This document shows positions 8,253 through 23,017 of a stretch of 32,000 bases of DNA, piece after piece. The position numbers and the translations under genes were made by a program. This DNA comes from Bifidobacterium longum subsp. longum JCM 1217 (GTDB lineage: Bacteria > Actinomycetota > Actinomycetes > Actinomycetales > Bifidobacteriaceae), in contig NC_015067.1 in NCBI RefSeq assembly GCF_000196555.1, forward strand, positions 30,001 to 62,000, given 5' to 3'. Every line of letters begins with the position of its first letter. The stretch's first letter is position 1. The notes beneath the pieces were generated by a model that saw only the letters and a program-made list of their open reading frames with translations, was not told the DNA's origin and searched no databases.

Positions 8253-8335
8253 CCCCTTTCACCATCTTGCAATAATTCTTACATGTAAGAACTCTCTGTT
8301 AACATGTAAGAATTATTGCAAGATGGTGAAAGGGG
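8253..8335. repeat. perfect 34-bp-arm palindrome (15-nt spacer) abutting the start codon of the next gene
   Basis: CCCCTTTCACCATCTTGCAATAATTCTTACATGT (8253-8286) is the exact reverse complement of 8302-8335. The spacer is AAGAACTCTCTGTTA. The right arm ends in GAAAGGGG immediately before the ATG at 8336. Confidence 0.9.
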
Positions 8336-9991: not shown

Positions 9992-10013
9992 TTGGTACGC
10001 GTGAAAGTAAGTT

Positions 10014-10086
10014 CTTTCATCACCTTTCAATAATTCTTTCATGTAAGAACTCTCTGTTTACATGTAAGAATTATTGCAAGATGATG
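10014..10086. repeat. second, degenerate copy of the 8256-8328 palindromic element
   Basis: It aligns without gaps to 8256-8328 with about 6 mismatches in 73 bp. The right arm ACATGTAAGAATTATTGCAAGATG is identical, and the left arm carries 4 substitutions. Confidence 0.85.
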
Positions 10087-10095
10087 CAAGATGCA

Positions 10096-10138
10096 CACAA
10101 AACGGGGAAGCTCTGCTTGATGTGAGCGGGGCTTCCCC
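10096..10138 (-). terminator. rho-independent-like terminator downstream of the displaced ppc 3' fragment
   Basis: Stem GGGGAAGC (10104-10111) pairs with GCTTCCCC (10131-10138). On the minus strand the hairpin is followed by GTTTTGTGTG. Confidence 0.5.
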
Positions 10139-10157
10139 ATATGCGCTGGTGTGTAGA

Positions 10158-10386
10158 TCAGCCTGTGTTCTGCAGGCCGGCAGCGACGCCGGAGACGGTG
10201 CACAGGATGAGGTAGATGAATCCTGCCTGTTGGCTTTGCGAGAGCTCTTCCTTGTCCACCTTCTTGCGCAGCGACCTGAGGGCGAGCACCTGGGTGACGG
10301 ACAGCGCGTCCACGTACGGGGAGCGGATGCGGATGGCCTGGCCGAGCACGTGGCGGTGCTGCAGCGGCCACTTGTCGCCCACGATG
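10158..10386 (-). pseudogene. ppc: detached 3' fragment of ppc (last ~75 codons plus stop)
   Basis: ORF 10158..10382 translates to GDKWPLQHRHVLGQAIRIRSPYVDALSVTQVLALRSLRKKVDKEELSQSQQAGFIYLILCTVSGVAAGLQNTG. This equals the C-terminus of the full ppc at 19979.. with one K/R difference. I counted about 10 nucleotide mismatches, mostly synonymous. Homology ends near 10386. Confidence 0.9.
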
Positions 10387-10482
10387 CGCTCAAGTTAGTC
10401 CGGTCAATGGCTTTGGAAAATCATGGGGAGTGCGGCTGCGCGGGTTCGCTCCTCGACAAGGTGACTTGATTTGGGACCGCCG

Positions 10483-11760
10483 TTAACTTTCGTCAGACAC
10501 ATCGTAAATCCCGTCCAAGTATCCGTATCGTCCGTTGTGCTTGTCCTTCGAGAATTCGACGATATTGATGTTATCGTCAAGAGGAATGCCAGCCATGTGA
10601 TTCGTGTTTTCGATAATGATGATTTGTTGTGAAACCGCTTGTTTCGCTAGATAGGAAAACAGGCCCACTTTCATGGATGAGTCTTCCAGGGGTCGTATTC
10701 CTTCGTCAAACCCATGCAGAGGCGTATCAATAAGCAGCCAACCCGGAGTATGCTTTGACTGTTCATTGAGATAATCATGAAATGCGAGCATAACAACGCT
10801 GTTAAGAAATGCGCAGTATCCCTTGCCTTGTTCATCAGCCTTGGAATACCCTGCTATTTCGACATCAAAAGAAGATCTGCTGAAATCTGCAGTATCAGCA
10901 CCTTGAAAATGACATTGTTGCAGAATGCTGCGTATGGTGTTATTCATGGAATACCAGAAATCACTCTGGAAACATTCGCGTGGCTTGTATTTTTCATCAT
11001 TCTGTGTTGCTTGACCAGCGTCATCGAGTGCCTTGTTGAAACGAGCATGCAGCGCTATGAGTTCCGCATATTCCGCATGCAATTGTTCTGCATGGGCAAT
11101 TTGCTCAATATCTTGTTGCATGTGCTGCGCTGTTGGTTGAATGTCGGATTTGAGCGAATGCATATTTTGCCGATGCTGCTGTTTCTCCAGATGCAGCTCC
11201 TGTTGCACCTCATCGGCTTTGTCGACGAGGATGGCTAGATCGGTTTCAACGTCTGCTTGGATTCTGTGGATATGCTCAATTTCTGTTGAGACGATTAGAA
11301 TGTCCTGTTCAGTCGGCACAGACATGTGGATGGGGCTGTGGCAAAACTGACATGTGGCGGGATAGGCATGTGTGCGGGCATGTTTCATTGCCTGTAGTTG
11401 CAAATCAAGACGTGCAGCGTCTGATTCGTATTGACTGATAAGTACCTTACGTTGGCGAATAAGTACCTCAAGGTGCTCATATTGTTGATTAAGCTGAGAG
11501 ATATGTGAGATGGTATGGGCATCTCGATTGAGGAGAGTTTGTCTTTGCTGTTCTACGTGTAATGCTTTTTTGTGAAGGTCTTCCAAATAGGTGTGAATGG
11601 TCTTCCCCTCATTTGTTGCGATATGGCGCATCTCCTCAAGGTGTCTGATGCGAGGCTCTATATCATCCAACTGCTGATGGATGAACTGTTCCACGGCTTT
11701 TCTGCGGGCGTGACGTTCGCTGGCACTCTCTGTCTGTATGGAGTTGTCGATTTTTTTCAT
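10483..11760 (-). CDS. ABC ATPase, C-terminal portion (coiled-coil insert plus Walker B / D-loop / H-loop half) of an SMC/Rad50-like ABC-3C-type ATPase
   Basis: 425 aa. Residues ~20-260 are heptad-rich and helical with C137-Q-F-C140 at the midpoint. The C-terminal part has ...GKGYCAFLNSVVMLAFHDY...GWLLIDTPLHGFDEG...IIIIENTNH. It overlaps the upstream ORF by 98 nt in a different frame. Confidence 0.75.
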   Translation of the reverse strand: MKKIDNSIQTESASERHARRKAVEQFIHQQLDDIEPRIRHLEEMRHIATNEGKTIHTYLEDLHKKALHVEQQRQTLLNRDAHTISHISQLNQQYEHLEVLIRQRKVLISQYESDAARLDLQLQAMKHARTHAYPATCQFCHSPIHMSVPTEQDILIVSTEIEHIHRIQADVETDLAILVDKADEVQQELHLEKQQHRQNMHSLKSDIQPTAQHMQQDIEQIAHAEQLHAEYAELIALHARFNKALDDAGQATQNDEKYKPRECFQSDFWYSMNNTIRSILQQCHFQGADTADFSRSSFDVEIAGYSKADEQGKGYCAFLNSVVMLAFHDYLNEQSKHTPGWLLIDTPLHGFDEGIRPLEDSSMKVGLFSYLAKQAVSQQIIIIENTNHMAGIPLDDNINIVEFSKDKHNGRYGYLDGIYDVSDES

Positions 11761-12316
11761 CTTGAACTAGCACGAGCAACGAGGACAGACTTTGTGTGAG
11801 AGTTGCTAGAGAGGTACTTTTGGGGAAAAGAATGGAGGGGCGTGCACGTCCTATTTGGTCCTCGGGGACAATCATGAGATGTCTGATGGCATTCCATGTG
11901 AAAGCAACTGTATGGTAGGTTTCGTTTGTCGCTATTCTACGGGTTGATTCAACGCCTAGTAAGGCAAGAAGAACCGTATTGATTGATTTACCGGCACGTG
12001 ATGAAACGGAGTAGGAACCGGGGACGATCATTGGGTTGCTGGATTTTACATGGATAGTGTTCTGAACGTGAATCGAACGACTAAGCGAAACCTCACCGCC
12101 GTTGGTCACGAACGTGACCTGTGCAATTTCATAGGCAGTTTTATCGGTAAAGGGGAGCTCTTTCCCTCCGCAGGCAAATTCCACGGTTTTTGCGATTCTG
12201 GTTTTCCCGGTGTTCGAAGCGCCGATAATGCAGTTCAGCCCGCATGTGAGATTAATGGCGGATTCCACTCCGTCCTTTCTGATTGCCGAAATTCGACGTA
12301 TCCATGTGTTTCTCAT
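11663..12316 (-). CDS. ABC ATPase, N-terminal portion (Walker A half), out of frame with 10483..11760
   Basis: Walker A LNCIIGASNTGKTRI. The last ~35 residues (…DEKNRQLHTDRECQRTSRPQKSRGTVHPSAVG) look like out-of-frame read-through after the A7 tract at 11751-11757. The start overlaps the upstream stop by 4 nt (ATGA). Confidence 0.75.
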   Translation of the reverse strand: MRNTWIRRISAIRKDGVESAINLTCGLNCIIGASNTGKTRIAKTVEFACGGKELPFTDKTAYEIAQVTFVTNGGEVSLSRSIHVQNTIHVKSSNPMIVPGSYSVSSRAGKSINTVLLALLGVESTRRIATNETYHTVAFTWNAIRHLMIVPEDQIGRARPSILFPKSTSLATLTQSLSSLLVLVQDEKNRQLHTDRECQRTSRPQKSRGTVHPSAVG

Positions 12317-12732
12317 AACTGGTTGTTCTCTTTCGTTATTCGGTTCATGATGGTTTCATAATCGTTTTTTATCAAGAGCTGAACAGCCTGTCGATAGGAG
12401 GCAGCGTAATCGCCGTGCAATGCTTCCGAATATTGGAAACATTCCGGAGTGGCGCGGTACAACAGGCAAGTGGAATCCACGGTTGCTGCTCCAACGATTA
12501 CGAGTTGGGCTAATCCTGCTTGTATTCGTTTGCGACGAGCATCATATTCGGCTAAAGCATGTGGACCATCGCCGTGAAGATTGCGCTGTCCGAATCCGAA
12601 TGTTTTCATATAGGTGGCGATAAGGTCAATGGCTGTGATTTCGTCAATTGTGGAAGGTCTAGAAAGAAGGGGAAGGCATAATGTCAATCGTGTTGCTGTT
12701 TCCTGTGTTGTGTTAAATAATGAATTATTCAT
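12313..12732 (-). CDS. small alpha-helical protein, candidate ABC-3C 'middle component'
   Basis: 139 aa, sandwiched between the CTD-bearing gene and the ABC ATPase with 8-nt and 4-nt overlaps. Size and position fit the middle-component families. The assignment rests on architecture, not on a computed hit. Confidence 0.6.
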   Translation of the reverse strand: MNNSLFNTTQETATRLTLCLPLLSRPSTIDEITAIDLIATYMKTFGFGQRNLHGDGPHALAEYDARRKRIQAGLAQLVIVGAATVDSTCLLYRATPECFQYSEALHGDYAASYRQAVQLLIKNDYETIMNRITKENNQL

Positions 12733-13795
12733 TTTCGTGTACCCACTCCAGCATATGGTCGTTGACCAGCATATGACACAGCCCTTTCTTTTCCGCTGCC
12801 TTAATCATTGATGGGAATTGGGCTATAACTGAACCGGATAGGGGGAAACCGGCTGCCTGAGATAGCGTTGCTCGCATGCGTAACAGTCCATCGGCGTAAT
12901 CAGATGCGCAGGTATCGCATATTCCGTCATAAAGATCAACCTTCAGTGCATCAAATTCTTGCTCTCCGTTTTCTATAACATCCCGTAGATTCCTGCGCAT
13001 TCCTTCCGCATCGTAAAAATATTCACGTTGCTTGGCGTATTCAGGACGACATGTCTGAGGAAGATCGTCGGAACAGTTGATTGGCTTGTGCAAGTGATCG
13101 GCATAGGCGGCTTGCATCTGCGTGAGGTATGTCTTTTCAAGATGATCATCTGGTTTATCCGGTGGAATTGGATAAGCCTTCCAGGGGACCGAAGAGCGCC
13201 CAAGGTGCAATTTGCCGTTGTTGATGCGACCAGACGCCAGAGGTAAGTTTTCGAAAATATCGAATTTCGGCTGAAAGCTTATGCCGTCGATGAGAATGTC
13301 ACGTCCACCGGCATTCGCCTGGAGTATTGACAGAAGCCATTTTCCTGTGGCAGAAGGAAGCTCACTGATATCCGTAACTCTAATATTTGCCTTGATAAGC
13401 TCCTTTTGAAAATCGGCAAGGGCATCAATGCTGATATCGCAGCAAAGACGTTCTACTTTCGAGATATCTAGGCGCTGATAAAACTCGGCGGCTTTCCAGG
13501 CAGGAATCTTCTTGCGACCGTTATAAAAACGAGTCAGATCAGTATCGTTGATTCCAGACCAGACCCCGGTGGTAATAGTGGTCTTTCCGGGTTTGCGGTT
13601 TCGATGATGTTGGGGAAGTGGATTTCTTAGACCGTCATCCTCTAACACAGCATCGAAGAAATCCTTCATAAATCCCTTTTTGTGGTGGTCTACGCCAGAT
13701 ATATAAGGGTTTACGAGCTGACAGAAGACTCCCAGAGCATAGGTAGCAGTAGTTTCGGCCAAGTGAGTCTCCTTCTCGTCTCCATTTGTCTTCAT
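12725..13795 (-). CDS. ABC-3C-type effector-component candidate: unknown N-terminal domain plus ABC-3C C-terminal-domain-like tail
   Basis: ORF 12725..13951. I prefer the ATG at 13795 (MKTNGDEK...), which is preceded by GGAAGG. The C-terminal ~110 aa (YFYDAEGMRRNLRDVIENGEQEFDALKVDLYDGI...KKGLCHMLVNDHMLEWV) resemble the CTD that couples effectors to ABC-3C ATPases. The N-terminal ~250 aa have no motif I recognise. Confidence 0.6.
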   Translation of the reverse strand: MKTNGDEKETHLAETTATYALGVFCQLVNPYISGVDHHKKGFMKDFFDAVLEDDGLRNPLPQHHRNRKPGKTTITTGVWSGINDTDLTRFYNGRKKIPAWKAAEFYQRLDISKVERLCCDISIDALADFQKELIKANIRVTDISELPSATGKWLLSILQANAGGRDILIDGISFQPKFDIFENLPLASGRINNGKLHLGRSSVPWKAYPIPPDKPDDHLEKTYLTQMQAAYADHLHKPINCSDDLPQTCRPEYAKQREYFYDAEGMRRNLRDVIENGEQEFDALKVDLYDGICDTCASDYADGLLRMRATLSQAAGFPLSGSVIAQFPSMIKAAEKKGLCHMLVNDHMLEWVHENE

Positions 13796-14212
13796 CCGTC
13801 GCCTTCCCATGAGGTCACTGTTCCTACGATGGAAGCCAGATTCAGACGAATAAGCCGGTAAAACACTGGAATATCGCCAGTATACGCCGCTTACAGCTGG
13901 ATCAGAGAAGCGCAACTTTCGTCTATTGAAAGGATTTGAGACCAGACACATCGTAATTTCTTCTTCAACTCGATGTCATGCGATAACCGGTTATAGAAGT
14001 AGGGCATTGGGCTGTTCATCCGTTGTGCCGCAGTGAAGCTGACTGGGGCTTTTAACTAATCACATGCATGAGATCTGCCTGCTTATTCATGGTGACGCGT
14101 CGGTTTTCTCCTGAACTGACGCGTCATGCTTATCCAGCAGGTTGGATGCTCATGTGGTGGCCTATGCAAGCAGGTCTCGAAGACCCAATAACTGGGTGGG
14201 ATCGAGACTGGA

Positions 14213-14809
14213 ATGAGAATTTCATTGAAACATGAGGCAATGCGCGCCGGTAATGTGTCCGTAACTGATATATACAACTGTTCGGAAGTGGAATTACGGA
14301 CGATGGTTGAACGCGATAGATGTTTGCGCGCAATCCGTATGGGTTGTTCGCCACGTGATATTGCACTACGTACCCCTCAAACGATACTTCAGGAATTGTG
14401 GAATGCGGAGGAACGTTCCGCTCACGCTTATTATCGATCGGACCGTGTCAGCGGAGTTATTTGCTCCTATGAGGATTTGGTTGGTGCAGGGCGGGAACCC
14501 CAGGGGTGTTCTGCTTCTTCTGAGGATATTCTCTTATGCGCGGAGGATGCGAGAGAAAGAGCTAACTGTTTGCAAGCTATCTTTGCGGAGATCGAAAAAC
14601 TGCCAGCAGGTCAGCGCAATATCGTCAGGGGTGTACTGGTAAAGGGGGCATCTCAATCAGATATGGCACGAGAGCTGGGCGTGTCCCGAGCTGCGGTGTC
14701 CAAACAGCTTTCAACGGCTGTGCGCAAAATTCGTGCCGCTATTCGCGACGAAAGCAAAGAAACGAAGAACACGACAACATCAGCAGTTTGTGAAAGAAAG
14801 GAGCATTAA
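14213..14809 (+). CDS. sigma-70 region-4-type HTH protein (divergent ECF/TcdR-like sigma factor or late-gene activator)
   Basis: C-terminus IEKLPAGQRNIVRGVLVKGASQSDMARELGVSRAAVSKQLSTAVRKIRAAI is a clear sigma70_r4_2 pattern. The N-terminal part lacks an obvious region 2. The start codon is uncertain (alternatives at 14240 and others). Confidence 0.65.
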   Translation: MRISLKHEAMRAGNVSVTDIYNCSEVELRTMVERDRCLRAIRMGCSPRDIALRTPQTILQELWNAEERSAHAYYRSDRVSGVICSYEDLVGAGREPQGCSASSEDILLCAEDARERANCLQAIFAEIEKLPAGQRNIVRGVLVKGASQSDMARELGVSRAAVSKQLSTAVRKIRAAIRDESKETKNTTTSAVCERKEH

Positions 14810-15039
14810 TGGTTCATTTCAGTGTTATCAGAGTGAAAGGAAGCCCGTCATATGACTTCGATGCATGCGGAGACATTTTGGCTATGGCCAAAGCTGTAGG
14901 TGTCATGACGGAAAACATGCGCACTGATCGCTGCGACAATACACAGTGTGATGGAAGTCGTTGTAAGGGAAACACTATGTTTCGGTTGGAGTTAGACACC
15001 GAAAATCGCAGAGTTCATCGCAGACGCCATGCCAGATGA
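14809..15039 (+). CDS. small Cys-rich ORF translationally coupled to the sigma-like gene (hypothetical; possible anti-sigma/partner)
   Basis: TAATG stop/start overlap at 14807-14811. The 76-aa product contains CGD...CDNTQCDGSRC. No family was recognised. Confidence 0.35.
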   Translation: MVHFSVIRVKGSPSYDFDACGDILAMAKAVGVMTENMRTDRCDNTQCDGSRCKGNTMFRLELDTENRRVHRRRHAR

Positions 15040-15133
15040 AACGCCCGAGGTTAACACCTCGTGGCGAAACGGCAGTGCAGGTGAGGGCAGATATTGGGTC
15101 TGCCTTCAGCAACAGGTCCCGAAGGAGGACATC

Positions 15134-17530
15134 ATGACTGATCAGATGGTGCTGCAGACGCAGCAGTGGCTGAACAAGACATACGGGAATGATCCCCGAT
15201 TCAAGAAAATCAACCCGGACGGCAGAACTGGTTGGCCGACAATCTATGCGCTTACTCGCGCATTGCAGATTGAATTGGGCATCCAGTCCACTGCCGATAA
15301 CTTCGGTCCTTCCACCCAGCGGTTATTCAAGCAGCGGTATCCGAATGGGGTGCGGCAGCAGGCAGTTGCGGACAAGAGCACTTCCAACGTGTATTCCATC
15401 ATTCAGGGGGCGCTGTGGTGCAAGGGCTACTCCACTGGTGGCAACATCTCACAGCATTTCTACGACGGAACAGGTTCCGCGATCAGGAAGCTTAAGGCTG
15501 ATATGGGCATAGAGGGAGATTCCAGCGTAGACGTTGAGATCATGGGGGCGTTGCTCTCGATGAAGCAGTTCGTGCTGCTGGCCTCTTATGGCGGTATCGA
15601 CTCCGTCCGTAGGGCACAGCAGTTCATCAACAAAGCATATCGTCCATACACGGGCATCATTCCGACTGATGGACTGTACGGCAGGGAGATGAACACGGCT
15701 CTTATCCAGGTGCTTCAGTCGCTTGAAGGTTTTTCACCCAGTGAGGCAACGGGGAATTTCGGCAACGGAACTAGATCTCGTTTGAAAACGATAACAGCAA
15801 ATAACGCATCCTCTAATGAGTCGTGGGTCTGGCTCGCCAGCACGGCTTTGGCGTGTAATGGGATCGGGGGCGGGCCGACCTTCGTATGGACGAGCACGTT
15901 CGCCAATATCGTGAAAGCGTTCCAGGAGCGTTATGCCATTGCTGTGACGGGCTCTATTGATTCGACCACGTGGATGAGCCTGTTGACATCTAAAGGTGAT
16001 CCTGACCGTCCGTGTGTGGCCTGTGACACTAGGTTCGAAATTACCGACGCCAGGTTGGCGACGTTGAAGGCAGACGGGTATGAAATCGTGGGACGTTATC
16101 TGACGGAGCCTGGCCAGTCGTCGTTGGCGCCCAAGGATTACTTTAAGGCCATCCGTCCGGGTGAGCTCGAGCGCATCACTCGGGGCGGCATGCGGTTCTT
16201 CCCGATCTTCCAGGAGTACTCCACGAAGCTGGAGCATTTCACCCCGGCAAACGGCGCTGCTCATGCCAAGACCGCTCGTGAGGCGGCGCAGCGTCTTGGC
16301 ATCCCTCCCACCCATATCTACTTCGCTGTAGACTTCGATGCGACCGATGACCAGGTGACCAGCAATATCCTGCCATACTTCCGTGCGGTTTGTTCGTCTC
16401 TTGGTGGTGGATACGGAGTAGGGATTTACGCGTCCCGCAATATTTGTTCCCGCGTCATCGGTGCGGGATGCGCGAGTAACGCGTTTGTGTCCGACATGTC
16501 GACGGGATTCTCGGGCAATCTCGGCTTCCCCATCCCGGACGGTTGGGTCTATGACCAGTTCACCGAGATTGACGATTACAAGGGCCAGGGCTGGGATCTG
16601 GACCGTGTTGCCTATTCCGGGAAGGTATCAGCATGCGCTTCACTGTTGCCTGCCGTGCCAGTGCCTGCGCCTGATCCCGATCCCGTCTCGCCAGAAACGG
16701 ATCCGCTGCTAAGATGGGTCGCCGTCACGGAGCAGGAGTGTCGCAAAGCCCTTGCCGCTCTGGGTACCCAGGTAGCGGTTTACGAGGACAGCATCGGTCA
16801 ATTCATCCTGGAATGGCTCCGCAAACCTGAATACTGGTCGGAAGGCGGTAGCGGGACACAAGCAATGTGGCACGCATATACTCCTGAAGTTTCGACTCCG
16901 CCCGACTTGGACGCGGCGCGTGTGGTATGTGCCAATGTATGCGAAGCACAGCCTTCAATTAAAGAGAAACTGCCATCGACTCGAGATGTTGCACACATGG
17001 CTGCAACTGCTCTCGGATACCTGACATGGGGTATCGAAAACAATCCAGCCAAATATGGTCTAGGCGATTTAGGTGGCTGGCCTCTCGACTTGTTGCAGAT
17101 CTGGGGTGCCTATCGCCGTGACGGCAAGCATGCCGACTTGGCAGCATGGCTCTATAAGCACCTTGGGAAAGATGAAGGATTCGGGTACGATGACGTTCTT
17201 GCGGATGCAGATGCATGGCTAATTGCTTCTAGTATGAGGAAACGATCCGGTTCGACGGTTCTTTCTGCTGCTATGCGTGAAACGTTTAAGCAGAGTGAGA
17301 CCCATCGTATCGTTCGATTCTACGACGAACGTTTTGCATCAAGCGCAGATAATGTGGTGAGTGCATATTCAACAATGGCGGACGGTCTTGATGCACTTGG
17401 TTTGACAAATATTGGAATGAGCGAAAGCATCCTAAAAAAGGCTGCCGGTACAGACAAGCTTCCTGATAAGCAGGAAGCTGAAGTGAGTGCTCGGGCGTTC
17501 GCTGCATTCATTGATCAGCCAAGACGGTAG
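15134..17530 (+). CDS. 798-aa multidomain protein: N-terminal peptidoglycan-binding-like repeats, DUF1906 (Rv2525c-like glycoside-hydrolase-like) domain, Pro-rich linker, unknown ~270-aa C-terminal domain
   Basis: Start at the ATG at 15134 behind GAAGGAGGA. There are four PG_binding_1-like helical repeats (VLQTQQWLNKTYG...GWPTIYALTRALQIELGI etc.). The DUF1906-like core spans ~16020-16640 (LKADGYEIVGRYL...FFPIFQE...HIYFAVDFDA...GVGIYASRNICSRV...GWVYDQF). The linker is PAVPVPAPDPDPVSPETDP. No N-terminal signal peptide or TM segment is present. Confidence 0.8.
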   Translation: MTDQMVLQTQQWLNKTYGNDPRFKKINPDGRTGWPTIYALTRALQIELGIQSTADNFGPSTQRLFKQRYPNGVRQQAVADKSTSNVYSIIQGALWCKGYSTGGNISQHFYDGTGSAIRKLKADMGIEGDSSVDVEIMGALLSMKQFVLLASYGGIDSVRRAQQFINKAYRPYTGIIPTDGLYGREMNTALIQVLQSLEGFSPSEATGNFGNGTRSRLKTITANNASSNESWVWLASTALACNGIGGGPTFVWTSTFANIVKAFQERYAIAVTGSIDSTTWMSLLTSKGDPDRPCVACDTRFEITDARLATLKADGYEIVGRYLTEPGQSSLAPKDYFKAIRPGELERITRGGMRFFPIFQEYSTKLEHFTPANGAAHAKTAREAAQRLGIPPTHIYFAVDFDATDDQVTSNILPYFRAVCSSLGGGYGVGIYASRNICSRVIGAGCASNAFVSDMSTGFSGNLGFPIPDGWVYDQFTEIDDYKGQGWDLDRVAYSGKVSACASLLPAVPVPAPDPDPVSPETDPLLRWVAVTEQECRKALAALGTQVAVYEDSIGQFILEWLRKPEYWSEGGSGTQAMWHAYTPEVSTPPDLDAARVVCANVCEAQPSIKEKLPSTRDVAHMAATALGYLTWGIENNPAKYGLGDLGGWPLDLLQIWGAYRRDGKHADLAAWLYKHLGKDEGFGYDDVLADADAWLIASSMRKRSGSTVLSAAMRETFKQSETHRIVRFYDERFASSADNVVSAYSTMADGLDALGLTNIGMSESILKKAAGTDKLPDKQEAEVSARAFAAFIDQPRR

Positions 17531-17545
17531 CTCGCATAATGCATT

Positions 17546-17578
17546 ATGTGTGGGCAGATGTGTCGTCTGCCCACACAT
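17546..17578. terminator. bidirectional hairpin between convergent genes
   Basis: ATGTGTGGGCAGA (17546-17558) pairs perfectly with TCTGCCCACACAT (17566-17578), with a 7-nt loop. Confidence 0.65.
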
Positions 17579-17629
17579 TCGCTGTTGTGCTTTCGATTTG
17601 GAATTCCTCTGCCAGATACGGGGAAACTT

Positions 17630-18145
17630 CTAAAAGGCCGCTATGCCGAGGAAGAGTCCTGTAATACCGGTGGCCATCAATACGATGATGGTGATGATTC
17701 CGGCGAAGATGCGTACAGGAAGGGTTTCTTTTCCATGGTTTGATGGGCTGTCCGCAACTAATCTCATTACTCCAGCTGTAACCCAGCAAACTGCGCCCAG
17801 GACTAGTGCCAGGAATTCTCGACACCATTCCGTTTCAAGTGCGGGAATGCCGACGATTGATGACGGGTCGCTTGCCAGTCTTGGCGGAATAGCGCATAGG
17901 ATACGCTCCAATATCAGGTAAGGGGTATCAAAATGGATCAGAGTCAAAGCGAATGGGAGCTGTAGCGCCAGTCCTATCCACCACAGCGTGCGTCGGATGG
18001 TCGCGAGTCTGTCGCCCGGCCTAGTGTCCGGCTTGCCGCCTTCGCCCTCCGTCCCGGCACCGTCCGCGGGCGTGTGGTCCCCCTCGTGCGCGTCCGTCGT
18101 CCCGTCCGTGTCCCTTTCCGCGTCCATATGTCCCCCTCCGATCAT
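17630..18145 (-). CDS. 3-TM membrane protein with charged N-terminal tail (candidate immunity/holin-like partner), copy 1
   Basis: ORF 17630..18319 trimmed to M59 (MIGGGHMDAERD...), because its paralog starts at the same MIGG motif and the upstream 58 codons lie in the ppc-downstream repeat. Hydrophobic segments: TLWWIGLALQLPFALTLIHF, FLALVLGAVCWVTAGVMRLV, IFAGIITIIVLMATGITGLFLGIAAF. Confidence 0.65.
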   Translation of the reverse strand: MIGGGHMDAERDTDGTTDAHEGDHTPADGAGTEGEGGKPDTRPGDRLATIRRTLWWIGLALQLPFALTLIHFDTPYLILERILCAIPPRLASDPSSIVGIPALETEWCREFLALVLGAVCWVTAGVMRLVADSPSNHGKETLPVRIFAGIITIIVLMATGITGLFLGIAAF

Positions 18146-18320
18146 CCGAGTCTGTCGCTCGGCCCGCGCGCCCGTTCCGTGCGCGCCGTCGCCGGCCAGT
18201 CTAGGGCCGTGCGACGCGAACGGGGAGGCCCGCGCCGTCAATCGGCACGGAACCTCCCCGTTCATCAAGCGGTCGGACAGCCGCGGATCAGCCCGTGTTC
18301 CGCAGGCCGGCGGCGACACC
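18123..18320. repeat. internal copy of the ppc stop-proximal ~30 nt plus ~140-bp ppc-downstream spacer
   Basis: It aligns with 19815-20011: CCGATCATCCGAGTCTGTC.CTCGGCC...GCCAGTCTAGGGCCGTGCGACGCGAACGGGGAGGCCCGCGCCGT...TCAGCCCGTGTTC.GCAGGCC.GCGGCGAC. It includes the hairpin CGGGGAGG...CCTCCCCG. Confidence 0.85.
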
Positions 18321-19128
18321 CGAGCAGGAGTGTCACAAAGCCCCTGCCGCTCTGGGTACCCAGGTGGCGGTTTATGAGGACAGCATCGGTCAACTCATCC
18401 TGCAATGGCTCCGCAAACCTACGTACTGGTCGGAAGGTAGTTCCGGCACGCAGGCACTATGGCATGCATACACACCGGAGCCGGTTACTCCCAGCGAATT
18501 GGCCTTGTCGCGTCAGGCATGCGGTGTCGCATGTGATGCACAGCCTGTCATCAAAGGCACGCTGCCCAATCGGGACATCGCCCATATGGCTGCCACATCC
18601 TTGGGATACTTGACATGGGGCGTTACGAACGATCCAATGGACTATGGTCTCGGTGATCTGGGCGGATGGGCTCTGGATTTGCTGCAGATTTGGGGAAGCT
18701 ACCTGGCGAATACCCCGAAAGAGGACCTGGCGTCATGGCTGCACGCTCATCTCGGCGAGCAAGACGCTCGTATGGGATTCAGTTACAGCGATGTTCTCGC
18801 GGACTGTGATGCATGGTTGCTGGCGCGGTCCATGCAGAGCAATTCTTCCGAAAGGTCTTTGTCCACCGCTATGCGGGACATGTTCGCGCAAAGCGAGACG
18901 AATCGAATTAAACGGTTCTATCAGTCCCGGTTCAAGGGAAGTGCGGACAACCTGGTCATCGCATTTCGAAAGCTTGTTGATGGAATCGATCTTGGAATAT
19001 TCGATAACGTATCCGGAAGTAAAAAAGCACTGCTCATTGCGTCACATGCAGACCGACTCCCGAGTCAAGCGGAGGCTGGTATATTGGCATTATCCTATGC
19101 TGAATCTCTTGAAAATCCGAACCGTTAA
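18295..19128 (+). CDS. stand-alone paralog of the C-terminal domain of the 15134..17530 protein (5'-truncated 'orphan' module)
   Basis: From ECHKAPAALGTQVAVYEDSIGQLILQWLRKP onward it aligns with residues after the Pro-rich linker of the large protein. Shared blocks are HMAATxLGYLTWG, YGLGDLGGWxLDLLQIWG and SDVLADxDAWL. The only in-frame start is a GTG at 18295 inside ppc-derived sequence, with no SD and no upstream ATG. Confidence 0.6.
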   Translation: MFRRPAATPEQECHKAPAALGTQVAVYEDSIGQLILQWLRKPTYWSEGSSGTQALWHAYTPEPVTPSELALSRQACGVACDAQPVIKGTLPNRDIAHMAATSLGYLTWGVTNDPMDYGLGDLGGWALDLLQIWGSYLANTPKEDLASWLHAHLGEQDARMGFSYSDVLADCDAWLLARSMQSNSSERSLSTAMRDMFAQSETNRIKRFYQSRFKGSADNLVIAFRKLVDGIDLGIFDNVSGSKKALLIASHADRLPSQAEAGILALSYAESLENPNR

Positions 19129-19146
19129 TCAATCATGATTGTGATC

Positions 19147-19183
19147 GCATTGCGTGGAATGATTCAGCCATTCCACGCAATGC
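19147..19183. terminator. bidirectional hairpin between convergent genes
   Basis: GCATTGCGTGGAATG (19147-19161) pairs perfectly with CATTCCACGCAATGC (19169-19183), with a 7-nt loop. Confidence 0.65.
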
Positions 19184-19198
19184 GCCTCTGGTAAAACG

Positions 19199-19834
19199 TC
19201 ATAGAGTCATTAGAGCGGAAAGTAGCGTTATCACAAGAACGGGAAAGACCATGACCAGCACGAGAAACGATATGATTCCCACAAGGACATGCGAGGCGGA
19301 AGAGGAATGATCACGAAGTTCCGGATATACAGATCGCATATATGAACGCACGCCAAAGATGACAAGCGCCGCAATCCAGCAGACTACCCCCATAATCAAT
19401 ACTAAGGTAAGTCTACGTACATACTCAGTTGCCGTAGTTAAATTCATGCACGAAGAGGAAGAGAACGTTAAGACTCTGCAGATTATAGTATCATCATCGC
19501 CATTGGCGCCCCATTCCGCCCACAAAATAAGTGCTGGTGAAAGCAGCAGTAATCCCAGCCACCATAGCACGCGTCTGGCCTTGCCCAAAGCCACATAGCA
19601 TCTACTCGCCTTAAGGAATTTGGTAGCTGCTTTCGGTGCCAAAGCATATTTCTTGCCGGAAAAATTTTCTGACGTATCTTCCAGGCCATGTTTTTTCCCA
19701 ATGTCATCGATCATAGCCGGATTCGCTTTGCAAATGTGGCGTTCGTTTCCGGCATCGCCCTCCGCCTTGATGCCGTCCGTTGGCCCGGTGCTCCCGCGCT
19801 CATTCGATGGCTTGTCCATGTCCCCTCCGATCAT
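19199..19834 (-). CDS. 3-TM membrane protein with charged N-terminal tail, copy 2 (paralog of 17630..18145)
   Basis: 211 aa, starting MIGGDMDK. Hydrophobic segments: VLWWLGLLLLSPALILWA, LTLVLIMGVVCWIAALVIFGV, VLVGIISFLVLVMVFPVLVITLLSALMTL. It shares the RxLWWxGL and VCWxxA motifs with copy 1. Confidence 0.7.
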   Translation of the reverse strand: MIGGDMDKPSNERGSTGPTDGIKAEGDAGNERHICKANPAMIDDIGKKHGLEDTSENFSGKKYALAPKAATKFLKASRCYVALGKARRVLWWLGLLLLSPALILWAEWGANGDDDTIICRVLTFSSSSCMNLTTATEYVRRLTLVLIMGVVCWIAALVIFGVRSYMRSVYPELRDHSSSASHVLVGIISFLVLVMVFPVLVITLLSALMTL

Positions 19835-19978
19835 CCGAGTCTGTCACTCGGCCAGCGCGCCCGTTCTATGCGCGCCGTCGCCGGCCAGTCTAGGGCCGTG
19901 CGACGCGAACGGGGAGGCCCGCGCCGTTTATCGGCACGGAACCTCCCCGCTCGCTTTTCCCGATCGGTCGGCCGGGAA

Positions 19979-22732
19979 TCAGCCCGTGTTCTGCAGGCCC
20001 GCGGCGACGCCGGAGACGGTGCACAGGATGAGGTAGATGAATCCGGCCTGTTGGCTTTGCGAGAGCTCTTCCTTGTCCACCTTCTTGCGCAGCGACTTGA
20101 GCGCCAGCACCTGAGTGACGGACAGCGCGTCCACGTATGGGGAGCGGATGCGGATGGCCTGGCCGAGCACGTGACGGTGCTGCAGCGGCCACTTGTCGCC
20201 CACGATGGCCAGAACCCACTTGCGGGTGAGCTCCATCTCGTTGAGTACCTTCTCATTGAGGTCCTCGCGGTCGCCGAGGGCAAGGTACATCCTGGCGATG
20301 CGCTCATCCGTCTTGGCGATGGACATCTCGATGTTGTCGATGAAGGTGGAGAACAGCGGCCATTCCTCGTAAGCCTGACGCATGGTCTCCAGATCGCCGA
20401 ACTTCTCGCATGCGGTGCCGAGACCGTACCAGGCGGCCAGGTTGATGCGGGCCTGAGCCCAGGAGAAGATCCACGGAATCGTGCGCAGGTCGTCGAGCGA
20501 CTTGGCGCCGAGGCCACGCTTGGCCGGGCGGGAGCCGATCGGCAGCAGGCCGATTTCGGTCAGCGGCGTAACGATCGAGAACCACGGGGCAAAGCCGTCG
20601 GTGTTCAACAGGTCGAGGAAGCGGTTGTGCGCGGCCTCGTCGAGCTGAGCGGCCATGTCGGCATACTTCTCGGTCATCTCGGTGTTGCGCTTCTCCACGC
20701 TCGGCGCGGACTGCAGCAAGGTCGCCGCAGCCACGGACTCGACGTGGCGGATGGCCAGCACCGGGTTGCCGTAACGGGCGAAGATGACCTCGCCCTGCTC
20801 GGTGAGCTTGAAGCGGCACTTGACGGAACCGACCGGCTGGGCGAGCACCGCGCGGTTGGCGGGGCCGCCGCCACGACCGACGGCACCGCCGCGGCCATGG
20901 AACAGGGTCAGGTCGATGTCGTGCGACTCAGCCCATTTGGCGATGCGCTCCTGAGCGGAGTGCAGGGCCAGCGTGGCGGAGGTCGGGCCGGCGTCCTTCG
21001 AGGAGTCGGAGTAGCCGAGCATGACCTCGAGCTTGTTGCCGGTGGCCTTCAGACGAGCCTGAACCTCGGGGATCTTGATCATTTCCTCGAGCACGTCCAC
21101 CGAGTTCTGCAGATCCTCAAGCTGCTCGAACAGCGGGATCACGTCGATGGTGGGCACGTCCTCCGGGTGGGAGAAGGCCAAGCGGTTGAGCTCGTAGACA
21201 TCCTTGATGTTCTGGGCGCTCTTGGTGAAGGAGATGATGTAGCGGCGGGCGGCCTTGAGGCCGTTGCGCTTCTGGATGGCACCGAGGGCGCGGAAGGTGT
21301 CGAGCACCTCGTGCGTCATCGGCTGCAGTTCGCCGCGCTCGCCGTGCAGGCCGTGCTCGCGGATATCCGCAAGGGCGCGGGCGTGCACCACGGAGTGCTG
21401 ACGGAACTCCATCTCCACCATGTGGAAGCCGAAGGTCTCGGTCTGCCAGATCAGATCCTGCAGCGGGCCGTAAGCGGAACGCTTGGCACCGGCGGCGGCC
21501 AGCGAACGCTGGACCACCTTGAGGTCGGCGAGGAAGTCGTCGCAGGAGTGGTACATGAGGTCGGCGTCGCGCTCGATGGTGTAGTGCAGACGATCGGCCA
21601 TCACCAGCATGACCGCGCGGTGCATCTCCTTGGTGGAGATCAGGGCGGCCTTGTCGGTCAGGCGCTCGCTCATTTCCTTCTGGTGGCTCCAGAGGCTCTT
21701 GAGCTCGGCGCTCGGCGGCGTGGTCTCGGCTTCCATCGTGAGGTTGCGGCCCACGGTGCGGGTGGCTTGCTCAAGGGCGGCGATCACGTGATCGGAGAAC
21801 TTGCGGGCCACGGCGCGGCTCACCTTGGCGGTGACGTTCGGGTTACCGTCGCGGTCGGAGCCGATCCAGCTGCCCGGGTGGAAGAACGCGGGGCAAGCGG
21901 GCTCGACGAGACCGGCCTTATCGCCCAGGACCCAGTCGTCGAAGCGACGGTAGACCTTGGGGATGGTGTTGAACAGCGTGTTGTCGAAGATGTCGAGAAT
22001 CGTGTCCGCTTCCTCAACCGGGGTCGGCTTCTTCAGCGCGATCGGAGAGGTGCGGAACAGGGCGTCGATCTCGTTGTAGAGACGGCGCAGGCATTCCTTC
22101 TTATCCGAGCCGCCGAGGCGCTTGTACTCCTCAAGCAATTCGGAAACGCGGCGAATCTTGCCTTCCACGGCCTTGCGACGGGCCTCAGTGGGGTGCGCCG
22201 TGAAGACGGGGTGGAATTCGAGCTGGTTGAGCAGTTCCTTGGCCTTGGCCGGGCCAGTCTCATTGATGAGCTGGTGGTAGGCGACGGTGAGCTCGTTGAT
22301 CGGGTCGACCGCCTGGTCAACGGGCACGTTGTTCTCGCGCTCGTGGAGCACGGAAACGCGGTAGTTCTCCTCGGACAGGTTTGCCAGATGGAAATACGTG
22401 GCGAACGCGCGGGCCAGCAGCTGGGCGTCGTGCAACGTCATGTTGTCGATGACGTTCACGGCCTCCTTCAGGCCATCCTGGTCGGGGTTCGGATCCTTCA
22501 GCTCGGCGAAATGCTCGGCGCTGGCCTCCACCGCGTAATGACGCACGGTGTCGAACGTAGACAGCAGTTCGGGGTTGTATTCGCCCAGTACGTTACGCAG
22601 GATCTCAAGACACAGATCCATGTCGTACTTCAGGCTTTCGGGAAGATCATGCTCCTCCGGGCCCTTTCGGCCGGTCCCGGTAGTGACGATGGCGGCGTCA
22701 GCGGGAGTGATCTGTTCTTCAGGTGTTGCCAT
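19979..22732 (-). CDS. ppc: phosphoenolpyruvate carboxylase
   Basis: ORF 19979..22822 trimmed to the ATG at 22732 (MATPEEQ...), preceded by AAGGAGG, giving 917 aa. Conserved Ppc blocks: VFTAHPTE, GSWIGSDRDGNP, MLGYSDSSKD, FHGRGGAVGRGGGP, and the C-terminal LQNTG. Confidence 0.95.
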   Translation of the reverse strand: MATPEEQITPADAAIVTTGTGRKGPEEHDLPESLKYDMDLCLEILRNVLGEYNPELLSTFDTVRHYAVEASAEHFAELKDPNPDQDGLKEAVNVIDNMTLHDAQLLARAFATYFHLANLSEENYRVSVLHERENNVPVDQAVDPINELTVAYHQLINETGPAKAKELLNQLEFHPVFTAHPTEARRKAVEGKIRRVSELLEEYKRLGGSDKKECLRRLYNEIDALFRTSPIALKKPTPVEEADTILDIFDNTLFNTIPKVYRRFDDWVLGDKAGLVEPACPAFFHPGSWIGSDRDGNPNVTAKVSRAVARKFSDHVIAALEQATRTVGRNLTMEAETTPPSAELKSLWSHQKEMSERLTDKAALISTKEMHRAVMLVMADRLHYTIERDADLMYHSCDDFLADLKVVQRSLAAAGAKRSAYGPLQDLIWQTETFGFHMVEMEFRQHSVVHARALADIREHGLHGERGELQPMTHEVLDTFRALGAIQKRNGLKAARRYIISFTKSAQNIKDVYELNRLAFSHPEDVPTIDVIPLFEQLEDLQNSVDVLEEMIKIPEVQARLKATGNKLEVMLGYSDSSKDAGPTSATLALHSAQERIAKWAESHDIDLTLFHGRGGAVGRGGGPANRAVLAQPVGSVKCRFKLTEQGEVIFARYGNPVLAIRHVESVAAATLLQSAPSVEKRNTEMTEKYADMAAQLDEAAHNRFLDLLNTDGFAPWFSIVTPLTEIGLLPIGSRPAKRGLGAKSLDDLRTIPWIFSWAQARINLAAWYGLGTACEKFGDLETMRQAYEEWPLFSTFIDNIEMSIAKTDERIARMYLALGDREDLNEKVLNEMELTRKWVLAIVGDKWPLQHRHVLGQAIRIRSPYVDALSVTQVLALKSLRKKVDKEELSQSQQAGFIYLILCTVSGVAAGLQNTG

Positions 22733-23017
22733 ATAACCTCCTTTGCCGAATAACAGGTTGCTCGGTCTACTGGTCGTCTGCGGCTCCTCCGCAGTTGTTG
22801 AGACCAGTCGTTGCGAGCCCACAGCCCATATTCAACGTGGTTGTTGTGTGGGCAATAGTGTATCCCCGCGAAATCGCTTTTTACGTTACGAAGTCCATAT
22901 AGTGCGCCAAGTTGTCCACCTATAGAGACCGAATATCGGACAGCATATGAGACACTGTCCGATTCGCGGAAGATTTGAGCGCCTTACGATTGCTGGCGGG
23001 GAAGGCAGGGAGTAGTA

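Follow-up and report, generated by a model that had tools for sequence, protein, structure and literature searches.

In this study, we analysed 32,000 nucleotides (nt) of Bifidobacterium longum subsp. longum JCM 1217 (contig NC_015067.1, positions 30,001 to 62,000; hereafter the window), in which a 798-residue protein and a convergent membrane protein with three transmembrane segments (3-TM) are encoded on a low-GC island at the 3' end of ppc, the gene for phosphoenolpyruvate (PEP) carboxylase. We read this pair as an interbacterial competition module, a toxin with its immunity protein, borne on a mobile island and endowed with a predicted enzymatic activity, and assign this reading a probability of about 0.6. 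Established in this work are the domains of the large protein, the synteny of its homologues, the mosaic alleles in which toxin tail and membrane partner differ together, and the transfer of the island.

The domain architecture and its 3-TM partner are already known from a sequence analysis of 2025, as are the two relatives BacA and TelC. What is added here is the series of Bifidobacterium alleles, the immunity-only and remnant states at ppc, a recent interspecies transfer in the company of a Lamassu defence system, a sigma region-4 gene that recurs upstream, and a connection of the BacA family to proteins with TelC-like tails. An original prediction, made from the sequence alone, had put forward three readings of the locus: a secreted wall hydrolase resembling a class III bacteriocin with membrane immunity proteins, a prophage-derived endolysin/holin cassette, and a self-directed wall-remodelling enzyme. 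Homology to BacA, the downstream membrane gene, the mosaic alleles and the membrane genes that occur alone favour the first of these, in which the membrane proteins would confer immunity.

Domain composition of the 798-residue protein

15134-17530, + strand: toxin candidate, 798 amino acids (aa) (Rv2525c_GlyHyd-like, E 5e-47; PG_binding_1, E 1e-12)
15134-16003, + strand: toxin aa 1-290, four peptidoglycan-binding-like repeats (PG_binding_1, E 1e-12 for the whole protein)
16061-16564, + strand: toxin aa 310-477, Rv2525c-like (DUF1906) glycoside-hydrolase-like TIM barrel (PF08924, E 5e-47, profile positions 2-159 of 198)
16712-17530, + strand: toxin aa 527-798, C-terminal domain (CTD), assigned to prok-TelC (Lipocone, Pfam PF27189 YkzU) from profiles and a published sequence set

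The layout that had been read from the translation was confirmed, namely four peptidoglycan-binding (PGBD) repeats, a DUF1906 domain, a Pro-rich linker and a CTD. Segments 2 to 4 of the ~70-aa repeats each match PG_binding_1 on their own (E 8e-3, 5e-5 and 2e-4, respectively), and segment 1 is 33% identical to segment 3. The linker joins the TIM barrel to the 272-aa CTD, and searching PDB chain sequences with the full-length protein returned a marginal TIM-barrel match only. As originally noted, neither a signal peptide nor a transmembrane segment was found in the protein, its maximum 19-residue Kyte-Doolittle hydropathy being 1.42.

It is for the CTD that the original view, which saw no recognisable motif there, had to be replaced. 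Membership of the prok-TelC family is supported by sequence comparison and the literature. Homologues of the CTD carry precomputed Pfam PF27189 (YkzU) annotations, and a scan with a Pfam release predating PF27189 placed no family on it. The Prok-TelC file published by Burroughs et al. (eLife 2025) holds WP_196801257.1, identical to the CTD core of one of our homologous loci (L025), whose CTD is 43–45% identical to that of the window; a different sequence in the same file matches TelC (PDB 5UKH) with E 7e-24. Using hhalign, 25 CTDs aligned to ten other prok-TelC sequences with 99.2% probability (E 1e-19), and those ten aligned to sixteen LXG-TelC sequences, including 5UKH, with 95.2% (E 2.5e-8).

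The three conserved CTD blocks that the original prediction had singled out are present and invariant or nearly so in the 25 homologues. Conserved in the same set are H621, D645, D652, D687, D691, D693, R725 and R733, of which H621, D687/D691/D693 and the motif G648-W649...D652 are invariant or nearly so, and the last ~100 aa form a variable tail. H621 and D687/D691/D693 (DxxxDxD) align with DFTHQSIT and DDYKADLD of TelC, and the GWxxD motif aligns with TelC AGWEGD via the intermediate prok-TelC set only. A search with the CTD profile of 1.8 billion proteins gave 537 representative clusters; among the best 150 of these, many members are full length and others are short pieces. TelC itself is a phosphatase of lipid II that depends on Ca2+ and has an active site rich in Asp; it is toxic only once exported and harmless in the cytoplasm (PMC5555719).

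The N-terminal module has a different kinship. A tblastn search of plasmids with this module returned 568 matches, chiefly in Enterococcus and Lactiplantibacillus, and the match on Enterococcus faecalis pNY13321 sits inside the Bac41 locus, in the order amidohydrolase (BacL1), annotated bacL2, a phage holin family gene, BacA (the match itself) and a YcxB-family membrane protein. Toxin aa 3-497 are 39% identical to BacA (locus L002) and the similarity ends there, the CTD not being common to both proteins. The C-terminal region of BacA (L002 5998-8199) is not TelC-like and has a weak Ybfg_C match and a hydrophobic Gly/Ala-rich tail; unlike BacA, the homologues on E. faecium and L. plantarum plasmids have TelC-like CTDs. 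Two plasmid contexts stand out (L001 3966-4556 and L003 7429-7824). On small Lactiplantibacillus plasmids of 5–10 kb, the toxin homologue is followed by an unannotated 196-aa multi-TM open reading frame (ORF). On E. faecium plasmids, the order is a 229-aa secreted protein, the toxin homologue and a 131-aa single-TM protein.

Membrane partners and mosaic alleles

17546-17578, unstranded: perfect 13-bp hairpin separating the toxin gene from the convergent TM1 gene (hairpin search)
17630-18145, - strand: TM1, 171-aa 3-TM protein, candidate cognate immunity protein (hydropathy and context)
18322-19128, + strand: CTD', a second, 5'-truncated CTD, 58% identical to the main CTD and beginning at the ppc-fragment junction
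19146-19184, unstranded: perfect 16-bp hairpin between CTD' and TM2 (hairpin search)
19199-19834, - strand: TM2, 211-aa 3-TM protein, partner of CTD' and orphan immunity candidate (hydropathy and context)

A charged-tail 3-TM protein, TM1, indeed converges on the toxin across a perfect 13-bp hairpin, as had been predicted, and the hairpin is likely to be a bidirectional terminator. TM1 has an acidic N-terminal tail, three hydrophobic segments and two Cys in its first loop, and is exactly EEQ54671.1, in a cluster of 1054 members; Pfam gave no match to it. TM2 (BAF38804.1 / A0ZZC1_BIFAA) likewise has three hydrophobic segments and an acidic N-terminal tail. Despite a coding identity of only ~30%, the TM1 and TM2 genes have the same first codons (MIGG) and the same 131-nt upstream region, designated D3, which is the DNA immediately 3' of ppc. 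When the cassette is exchanged, the DNA downstream of ppc could act as the right-hand homology arm.

A scan of homologues restricted to one genome per species yielded 39 loci in Bifidobacterium, Gardnerella, Actinomyces, Arcanobacterium, Rothia, Kribbella, Arthrobacter, Lachnobacterium and others, most of which encode a full-length protein of 760–830 aa. The survey bore out the expected co-occurrence of CTD and membrane gene: in nearly all of these loci (about 30), a gene for a 130–215 aa multi-TM protein lies directly 3' of the toxin gene. It converges on the toxin gene in Bifidobacteriaceae and Clostridia and points the same way in Kribbella and Arthrobacter. The TM partners are barely alignable between clades, and mean pairwise identity is 0.49 for the PGBD, 0.52 for the TIM barrel, 0.46 for the CTD core, 0.39 for the CTD tail and 0.19 for the TM protein. 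The two loop Cys are present in TM1, TM2, the partner in locus L004 and both B. animalis copies, the last two also carrying a C-W...G-Y-x-C loop motif.

The alleles found within Bifidobacterium carry most of the argument. In related genomes (L043-L050), an identical TM2 adjoins ppc in three arrangements:

Arrangement A (L043, L044, L047): the same composite island as in the window
Arrangement B (L048-L050): TM2, one whole 799-aa toxin, regulator and Lamassu
Arrangement C (L045, L046): TM2 alone, with the last 109 nt of CTD' only

When compared in 50-aa segments, the window toxin is 96–100% identical to that of L048 (arrangement B) over aa 1-400, and 30–82% thereafter, with 30–68% in the CTD; the partner in L048 is a different TM protein from TM1. 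A third allele, that of L004, is 94–100% identical per segment to the window toxin up to ~aa 700 and 43–46% identical over the last 100 aa, and its TM partner is 29% identical to that of the window. In these mosaic alleles, CTD tail and TM partner were replaced jointly, which gives the polymorphism of the CTD that the original prediction had proposed looking for.

The second pair was described at the outset as a diverged repeat of the first. The likeness is real, 58% between the CTDs and ~30% between the TM proteins being beyond chance, but the second CTD is a 5'-truncated deletion remnant that starts exactly at a 55-nt ppc fragment. Because CTD' is nearly identical to the CTD of the whole 799-aa toxin of L048-L050 (96–100% per 50-aa segment from aa ~50 on), CTD' and TM2 can be read as the tail of a once-complete allele. 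The first ~115 nt of CTD' are closer to the main gene of the window than to the B allele, and a metagenomic protein (P0004) is the same chimera as the start of CTD', joined there to a full linker. The simplest history would be two tandem islands at ppc and a deletion whose two ends were the inner ppc fragment and the beginning of CTD', with a few shared bases at the join. A dedicated array of orphan modules was considered for the second pair and dropped, since the ppc fragment at the junction favours tandem insertion followed by deletion. B. animalis (L022 10858-12202) independently carries a 51-aa remnant of a CTD tail, which shares 49% identity with the main tail, and after it a second 3-TM gene whose product is 37% identical to the first.

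These data bear directly on whether the genes are instead a domesticated phage lysis cassette, with an endolysin, 3-TM holins and a sigma-like late activator, that lyses the producer itself. The Rv2525c-like domain matches phrog_13480 'endolysin' (E 9e-15) and the endolysin of Alicyclobacillus phage MMB025, the whole 798-aa protein matches phrog_15213 end to end, the absence of a signal peptide is as in holin-dependent endolysins, and the Bac41 locus holds a gene annotated as phage holin family. Prophage relatives, the part of this proposal that stood, exist in Gardnerella swidsinskii (L015 1-20792), where the toxin/TM pair is an accessory insert directly after a DUF1492/sigma region-4 activator (order: Ant, VapE primase, SNF2 helicase, activator, toxin, TM, HNH, small terminase, methyltransferases, large terminase, portal). 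However, a phage lysis module usually sits 3' of the tail genes, and in Gardnerella the activator and the HNH/terminase genes flank the pair, the lysis-gene end of that prophage being outside the stretch covered. On the Bifidobacterium island, family scans detected no phage structural genes, and the TM gene is convergent rather than co-oriented with the toxin gene, with its own upstream region and a hairpin between the two. Moreover, the TM gene is retained in strains without the large gene, and a holin without an endolysin makes little sense; CTD-tail and TM alleles switch together, which fits recognition rather than hole formation; and a TelC-type domain targets lipid II from outside the cell. 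The retention of TM genes without a toxin and the joint replacement of CTD tail and TM therefore favour immunity proteins over holins, and we regard a lysis cassette as unlikely.

The upstream regulator and the island at ppc

14213-14809, + strand: sigma-70 region-4 regulator, 198 aa (Pfam Sigma70_r4, E 2e-7, and Sigma70_r4_2, aa 121-175)
14809-15039, + strand: 76-aa ORF with 4 Cys, its start overlapping the regulator stop (TAATG)
15045-15091, + strand: 47-nt block 5' of the toxin start codon (1 mismatch relative to L004; adjoining spacer 75–86% identical)

Our analyses of the first of these genes agreed with the original prediction of a sigma-70 region-4 protein. The sigma region-4 part is firm and the N-terminal part is uncertain: TIGR02937 covers the C-terminal half only, and region 2 was not detected by Pfam or NCBIfam. 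An AlphaFold2 model of the protein has a mean pLDDT of 76 and a pTM of 0.40. In Foldseek, the sigma-4 part superposes on solved sigma-4 domains with a root-mean-square deviation (rmsd) of 1.4–2.0 Å; the full-length protein aligns with SigB and extracytoplasmic function (ECF) sigmas over 150–170 columns (E 2e-4 to 1e-3), but with an rmsd of 11–18 Å. Only close homologues of the regulator were found (at least 53% identity), and a phmmer search with the regulator and the 76-aa ORF against the 39 loci gave matches in the near-identical L004 only. The regulator weakly matches phage sigma families, and by BLASTP has no similarity to BacL2, the Bac41 counterpart, or to the protein encoded upstream in E. 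faecium. Genes for sigma region-4/DUF1492 or ECF sigma proteins lie directly upstream of the toxin in Gardnerella, L021 and L024, and the sigma-like regulator probably descends from a phage late-gene activator.

The original prediction had also proposed a Cys-rich small protein coupled to the regulator. Both the TAATG overlap and the four Cys are present; the 76-aa ORF had no family match in library scans, is passed over by gene callers in 8 related genomes, and differs from its L004 homologue by substitutions spread over the three codon positions (16/17/23), with 29 of 76 aa changed. On account of this even pattern and the absence of gene calls, it was dropped as a protein, and the segment is probably non-coding and leader-like. 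The nearly invariant block at 15045-15091 is a candidate promoter/operator for the sigma-like protein, judging by its conservation. A scan for consensus promoters and terminators performed at chance level and overlooked both perfect hairpins, and an Rfam scan of 13900-20100 gave no match.

10157-10386, unstranded: island left border, 230-nt copy of the ppc 3' end, 96% identical to 19978-20207
18133-18324, unstranded: internal junction, a D3 copy (18133-18263) and a 55-nt ppc 3'-end fragment (18270-18324)
19822-19952, unstranded: second D3 copy, between TM2 and ppc, forming the upstream region common to both TM genes
19979-22732, - strand: ppc, PEP carboxylase, the chromosomal anchor (PEPcase, E 2e-219; product BAJ65712.1 of B. 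longum JCM 1217)
10483-13951, - strand: Lamassu/ABC-3C defence genes (Pfam CTD6, E 2e-35; MC2, E 1e-20; PADLOC)
12725-13951, - strand: LmuA/CTD6 (PADLOC LmuA, E 3e-60)
12313-12732, - strand: LmuC/MC2 (PADLOC LmuC, E 2e-24)
11663-12316 and 10483-11760, - strand: LmuB in two overlapping ORFs (PADLOC LmuB, E 5e-42 and E 2e-91)

Approximately 8.1–20 kb of the window is a low-GC stretch within otherwise high-GC DNA. The low-GC island itself comprises ~10 kb at the ppc 3' end, the region 10157-19978 being flanked by copies of that end, which is its repeated site. In related genomes, gene callers annotate a PEPcase fragment of 74–103 aa at the left border. The two D3 copies (18133-18263 and 19822-19952) are 95% identical, and the 55-nt fragment at 18270-18324 is 84% identical to 19961-20015. 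A tRNA scan of the window found no tRNA genes, and the site is therefore not a tRNA-type attachment site; family scans of the island ORFs found no integrase.

Window positions 10155-19978 are 99.9–100% identical in nucleotide sequence to the island of L047, whereas the ppc and thrE genes of L047 are only 85% and 79% identical, respectively, to those of the window. The island has therefore been transferred recently between Bifidobacterium species. The identical 798-aa protein has been deposited from both B. adolescentis ATCC 15703 and B. longum, and the exact sequence occurs in at least 1000 contigs, those of the B. longum and B. adolescentis type strains among them.

This mobility argues against the third of the original readings, a self-directed or housekeeping autolysin of the Rv2525c kind that remodels the wall under the control of a membrane regulator. 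Such a role would suit a protein composed of PGBD repeats and an Rv2525c-like domain: Rv2525c is, according to the title of a cited reference, a Tat-secreted cell-envelope protein, and YbfG-type proteins occur in the pellicle and culture-fluid proteomes of Bacillus. The island locus, however, is accessory (related genomes carry it, lack it or have it rearranged at that site) and has recently moved between species; its relatives in other phyla reside on plasmids and prophages, a signal peptide is absent, and its CTD and TM alleles are diversifying. Because the island is accessory and recently transferred, we disfavour wall remodelling and consider it highly improbable.

A role in anti-phage defence, by abortive infection or superinfection exclusion and acting with the adjacent Lamassu or for the benefit of a prophage, also needs to be weighed. 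The module shares its island with the Lamassu/ABC-3C genes and was transferred with them, its Gardnerella relative occupies an accessory-gene position in a prophage, and Burroughs et al. (PMC12419801) class the architecture as one of biological conflict and assign no immunity protein. PADLOC, however, matches neither the toxin nor the TM proteins, and the surroundings of most of the 39 loci lack Lamassu genes, with upstream genes that vary widely. TelC is harmless in the cytoplasm and would therefore be a poor suicide effector, and a TM gene retained alone fits immunity to an external toxin. Accordingly, anti-phage defence appears very unlikely to be the function of the module. LmuB is uninterrupted (594–610 aa) in L043 and L048-L050, and for that reason the split LmuB of JCM 1217 is probably a frameshifted pseudogene.

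Further to the left, a Schlafen AlbA_2 / HATPase_c_4 / MarR-type gene (8336-9991) stands between two 77-nt near-palindromic repeats (8253-8335 and 10013-10091) with 34-nt arms that are 88–100% complementary, and the unit 8253-10091 may be a separate small insertion or regulated unit. Two further ORFs are spurious: one of 1021 aa antisense to ppc (19688-22753, + strand), as is typical of high-GC DNA, and one of 131 aa across the ppc fragment (10074-10469).

Proposed mode of action and relation to known systems

For the toxin/immunity module, we infer the enzymatic activity, immunity role, regulation and release route as follows. The 798-aa protein would act outside the cell, its four PGBD repeats docking it on the wall of a neighbour and its Rv2525c-like barrel, a fold also found in phage endolysins, opening or gripping the glycan mesh. 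The TelC-like CTD could thereby reach the outer face of the membrane and would cut lipid II (and undecaprenyl-PP) at the phosphoester bond, halting wall synthesis and lysing the target. At the surface of the producer's membrane, the convergent 3-TM protein would neutralise the cognate CTD, with specificity set by the TM protein and by the final ~100 toxin residues. Tail and TM gene would be swapped together by recombination, for which the flanks may be the body of the toxin gene and the ppc-downstream region. The second CTD/TM pair would be the leftover of an older tandem copy, whose intact TM2 may still protect against the CTD' allele, and the upstream sigma region-4 protein would switch on the toxin gene. 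Release by lysis is a reasonable guess, since relatives occur in prophages and Bac41 contains a holin-family gene.

Several points weigh against this proposal. The direct alignment of the 25 CTDs to the TelC/5UKH set reaches a probability of only 77% (E 2e-5) with GWxxD misaligned, a profile of the 25 CTDs run against PDB chain sequences did not reach 5UKH, and Foldseek searches of PDB and BFVD with the CTD model (pLDDT 85, pTM 0.88) gave no match, 5UKH included; because neither search recovered 5UKH, membership of the TelC family is graded as unconfirmed by structure. The CTD of BacA is not TelC-like and a wall-degrading activity of BacA itself has never been detected, and in the literature we found no experiment on any PGBD-Rv2525c-TelC protein. 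TM1 and TM2 match no known immunity family in a Pfam scan, their putative immunity role coming from gene context, and that the toxin gene is the target of the regulator is presumed. No export route is visible, hydropathy and family scans having found no signal peptide, LXG or type VII secretion system genes, or holin on the island. Finally, the correlation between TM and CTD divergence between genera is confounded by phylogeny, with which all regions correlate; it was dropped as proof of co-evolution, and therefore only the mosaics within Bifidobacterium were used as evidence.

The closest described counterpart is that of Burroughs et al. (eLife 2025, PMC12419801), which answers the statement in the original prediction that no described system combines these parts. 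That paper predicts, computationally, proteins in which a TelC domain is joined to PGBD and an Rv2525c-like barrel, and in Actinomycetota a linked, fast-evolving 3-TM protein (3TM-CCDN), the whole being read there as a conflict system; 3TM-CCDN is defined there by two Cys, an Asp and an Asn between the TM segments, and the version with it is linked to a secreted VanY peptidase. The window module shares the domain order, the CTD family and the rapidly diverging 3-TM neighbour, and in Bifidobacterium the first loop of this neighbour contains two Cys. The Asp/Asn of the CCDN signature is not evident in the Bifidobacterium-clade partners, and some Actinomyces-type partners are without the Cys. Unlike the architectures described there, the island has no VanY peptidase or double-Ig gene among its ORFs according to family scans; the passages of that paper covered here mention no sigma region-4 regulator, truncated remnant pair, ppc site or link to Bac41.

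Bac41 comprises the secreted effectors BacL1 and BacA, the latter with an undefined biochemical role, and the immunity protein BacI. It resembles the window module in BacA, which is homologous to the N-terminal ~500 aa of the toxin (39%) and likewise starts without a signal sequence, and in having a positive regulator gene and a membrane immunity gene. Bac41 subtypes differ, according to a review citing Kurushima 2016, in a region tied to specific immunity factors. In contrast to Bac41, which is plasmid-borne, the island has no counterpart of the BacL1 endopeptidase that is needed for lysis, no amidase or endopeptidase gene being found on it; its sigma-like protein is unrelated to BacL2 (BLASTP); the candidate BacI, encoded 3' of bacA, is of the YcxB family, to which TM1 and TM2 have no match; and its TelC-like CTD stands in place of the hydrophobic Gly/Ala-rich tail of BacA.

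TelC is an LXG toxin exported through the type VII secretion system of Streptococcus intermedius. The toxin domains are homologous and have His, GWxxD and Asp-rich motifs, and by analogy lipid II at the outer face of the membrane would be the expected target and immunity would be needed at the cell surface. The island toxin differs in having a PGBD N-terminus, no LXG domain, WXG100 partner or type VII secretion genes being seen, and its delivery would use wall-binding and wall-cleaving domains rather than cell contact. TipC, the TelC immunity protein, is probably of another kind than the candidates TM1 and TM2.

Other systems offer partial parallels. Colicin M has an unrelated fold and a Gram-negative uptake route, and its immunity protein Cmi is membrane-anchored. 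The catalytic domain of this E. coli protein, as a cited reference title and an assay control indicate, degrades undecaprenyl-phosphate-linked peptidoglycan precursors outside the cytoplasm; a diffusible protein toxin attacking lipid-linked wall precursors would be an analogue of the window protein, not a member of its family. Polymorphic toxins of the contact-dependent inhibition (CDI)/Rhs type have orphan or displaced C-terminus/immunity modules downstream of the main gene. The second pair of the window is similar in having a truncated toxin 3' end and an intact immunity gene candidate downstream, with ~115 nt of the remnant resembling the main gene; it differs in the ppc fragment that lies between remnant and main gene, and in that the alleles are variants of one fold rather than distinct toxins. 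As in the TcdR/UviA systems, the gene immediately 5' of a signal-less toxin gene codes for a small sigma-like protein, but only region 4 is firm in the island regulator, and its nearest functional relatives are phage sigma and DUF1492-type proteins.

A broader generalisation is possible, although we advance it tentatively and consider it doubtful. Proteins of the BacA family, with PGBD repeats and an Rv2525c-like barrel, may be a general vehicle for crossing Gram-positive walls without a secretion system, loaded with interchangeable membrane-proximal killing domains (mostly a TelC-like lipid II phosphatase, and a hydrophobic tail in BacA of Bac41). Their release might come from the lysis of some of the cells, under a prophage or a sigma-driven programme, with specificity coming from the last ~100 residues and the 3-TM immunity protein. 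In gut bifidobacteria, exchange of the cassette and of the immunity-only gene at ppc would then shape the coexistence of strains.

If true, the proposed mode of action would represent a way to deliver a lipid II phosphatase through the thick Gram-positive wall without a secretion system. It also provides a lead on the role of BacA in Bac41, where BacA may ferry a membrane-directed C-terminus across the wall. Nature supplies material for testing these ideas in the form of three alleles and their partners, as well as remnant-only strains. To our knowledge, no large protein toxins are known from B. longum or B. adolescentis, which are major commensals of the human gut. Should the module prove to kill, it could plausibly determine how gut strains replace one another or coexist, and immunity-only strains would be natural "cheaters".

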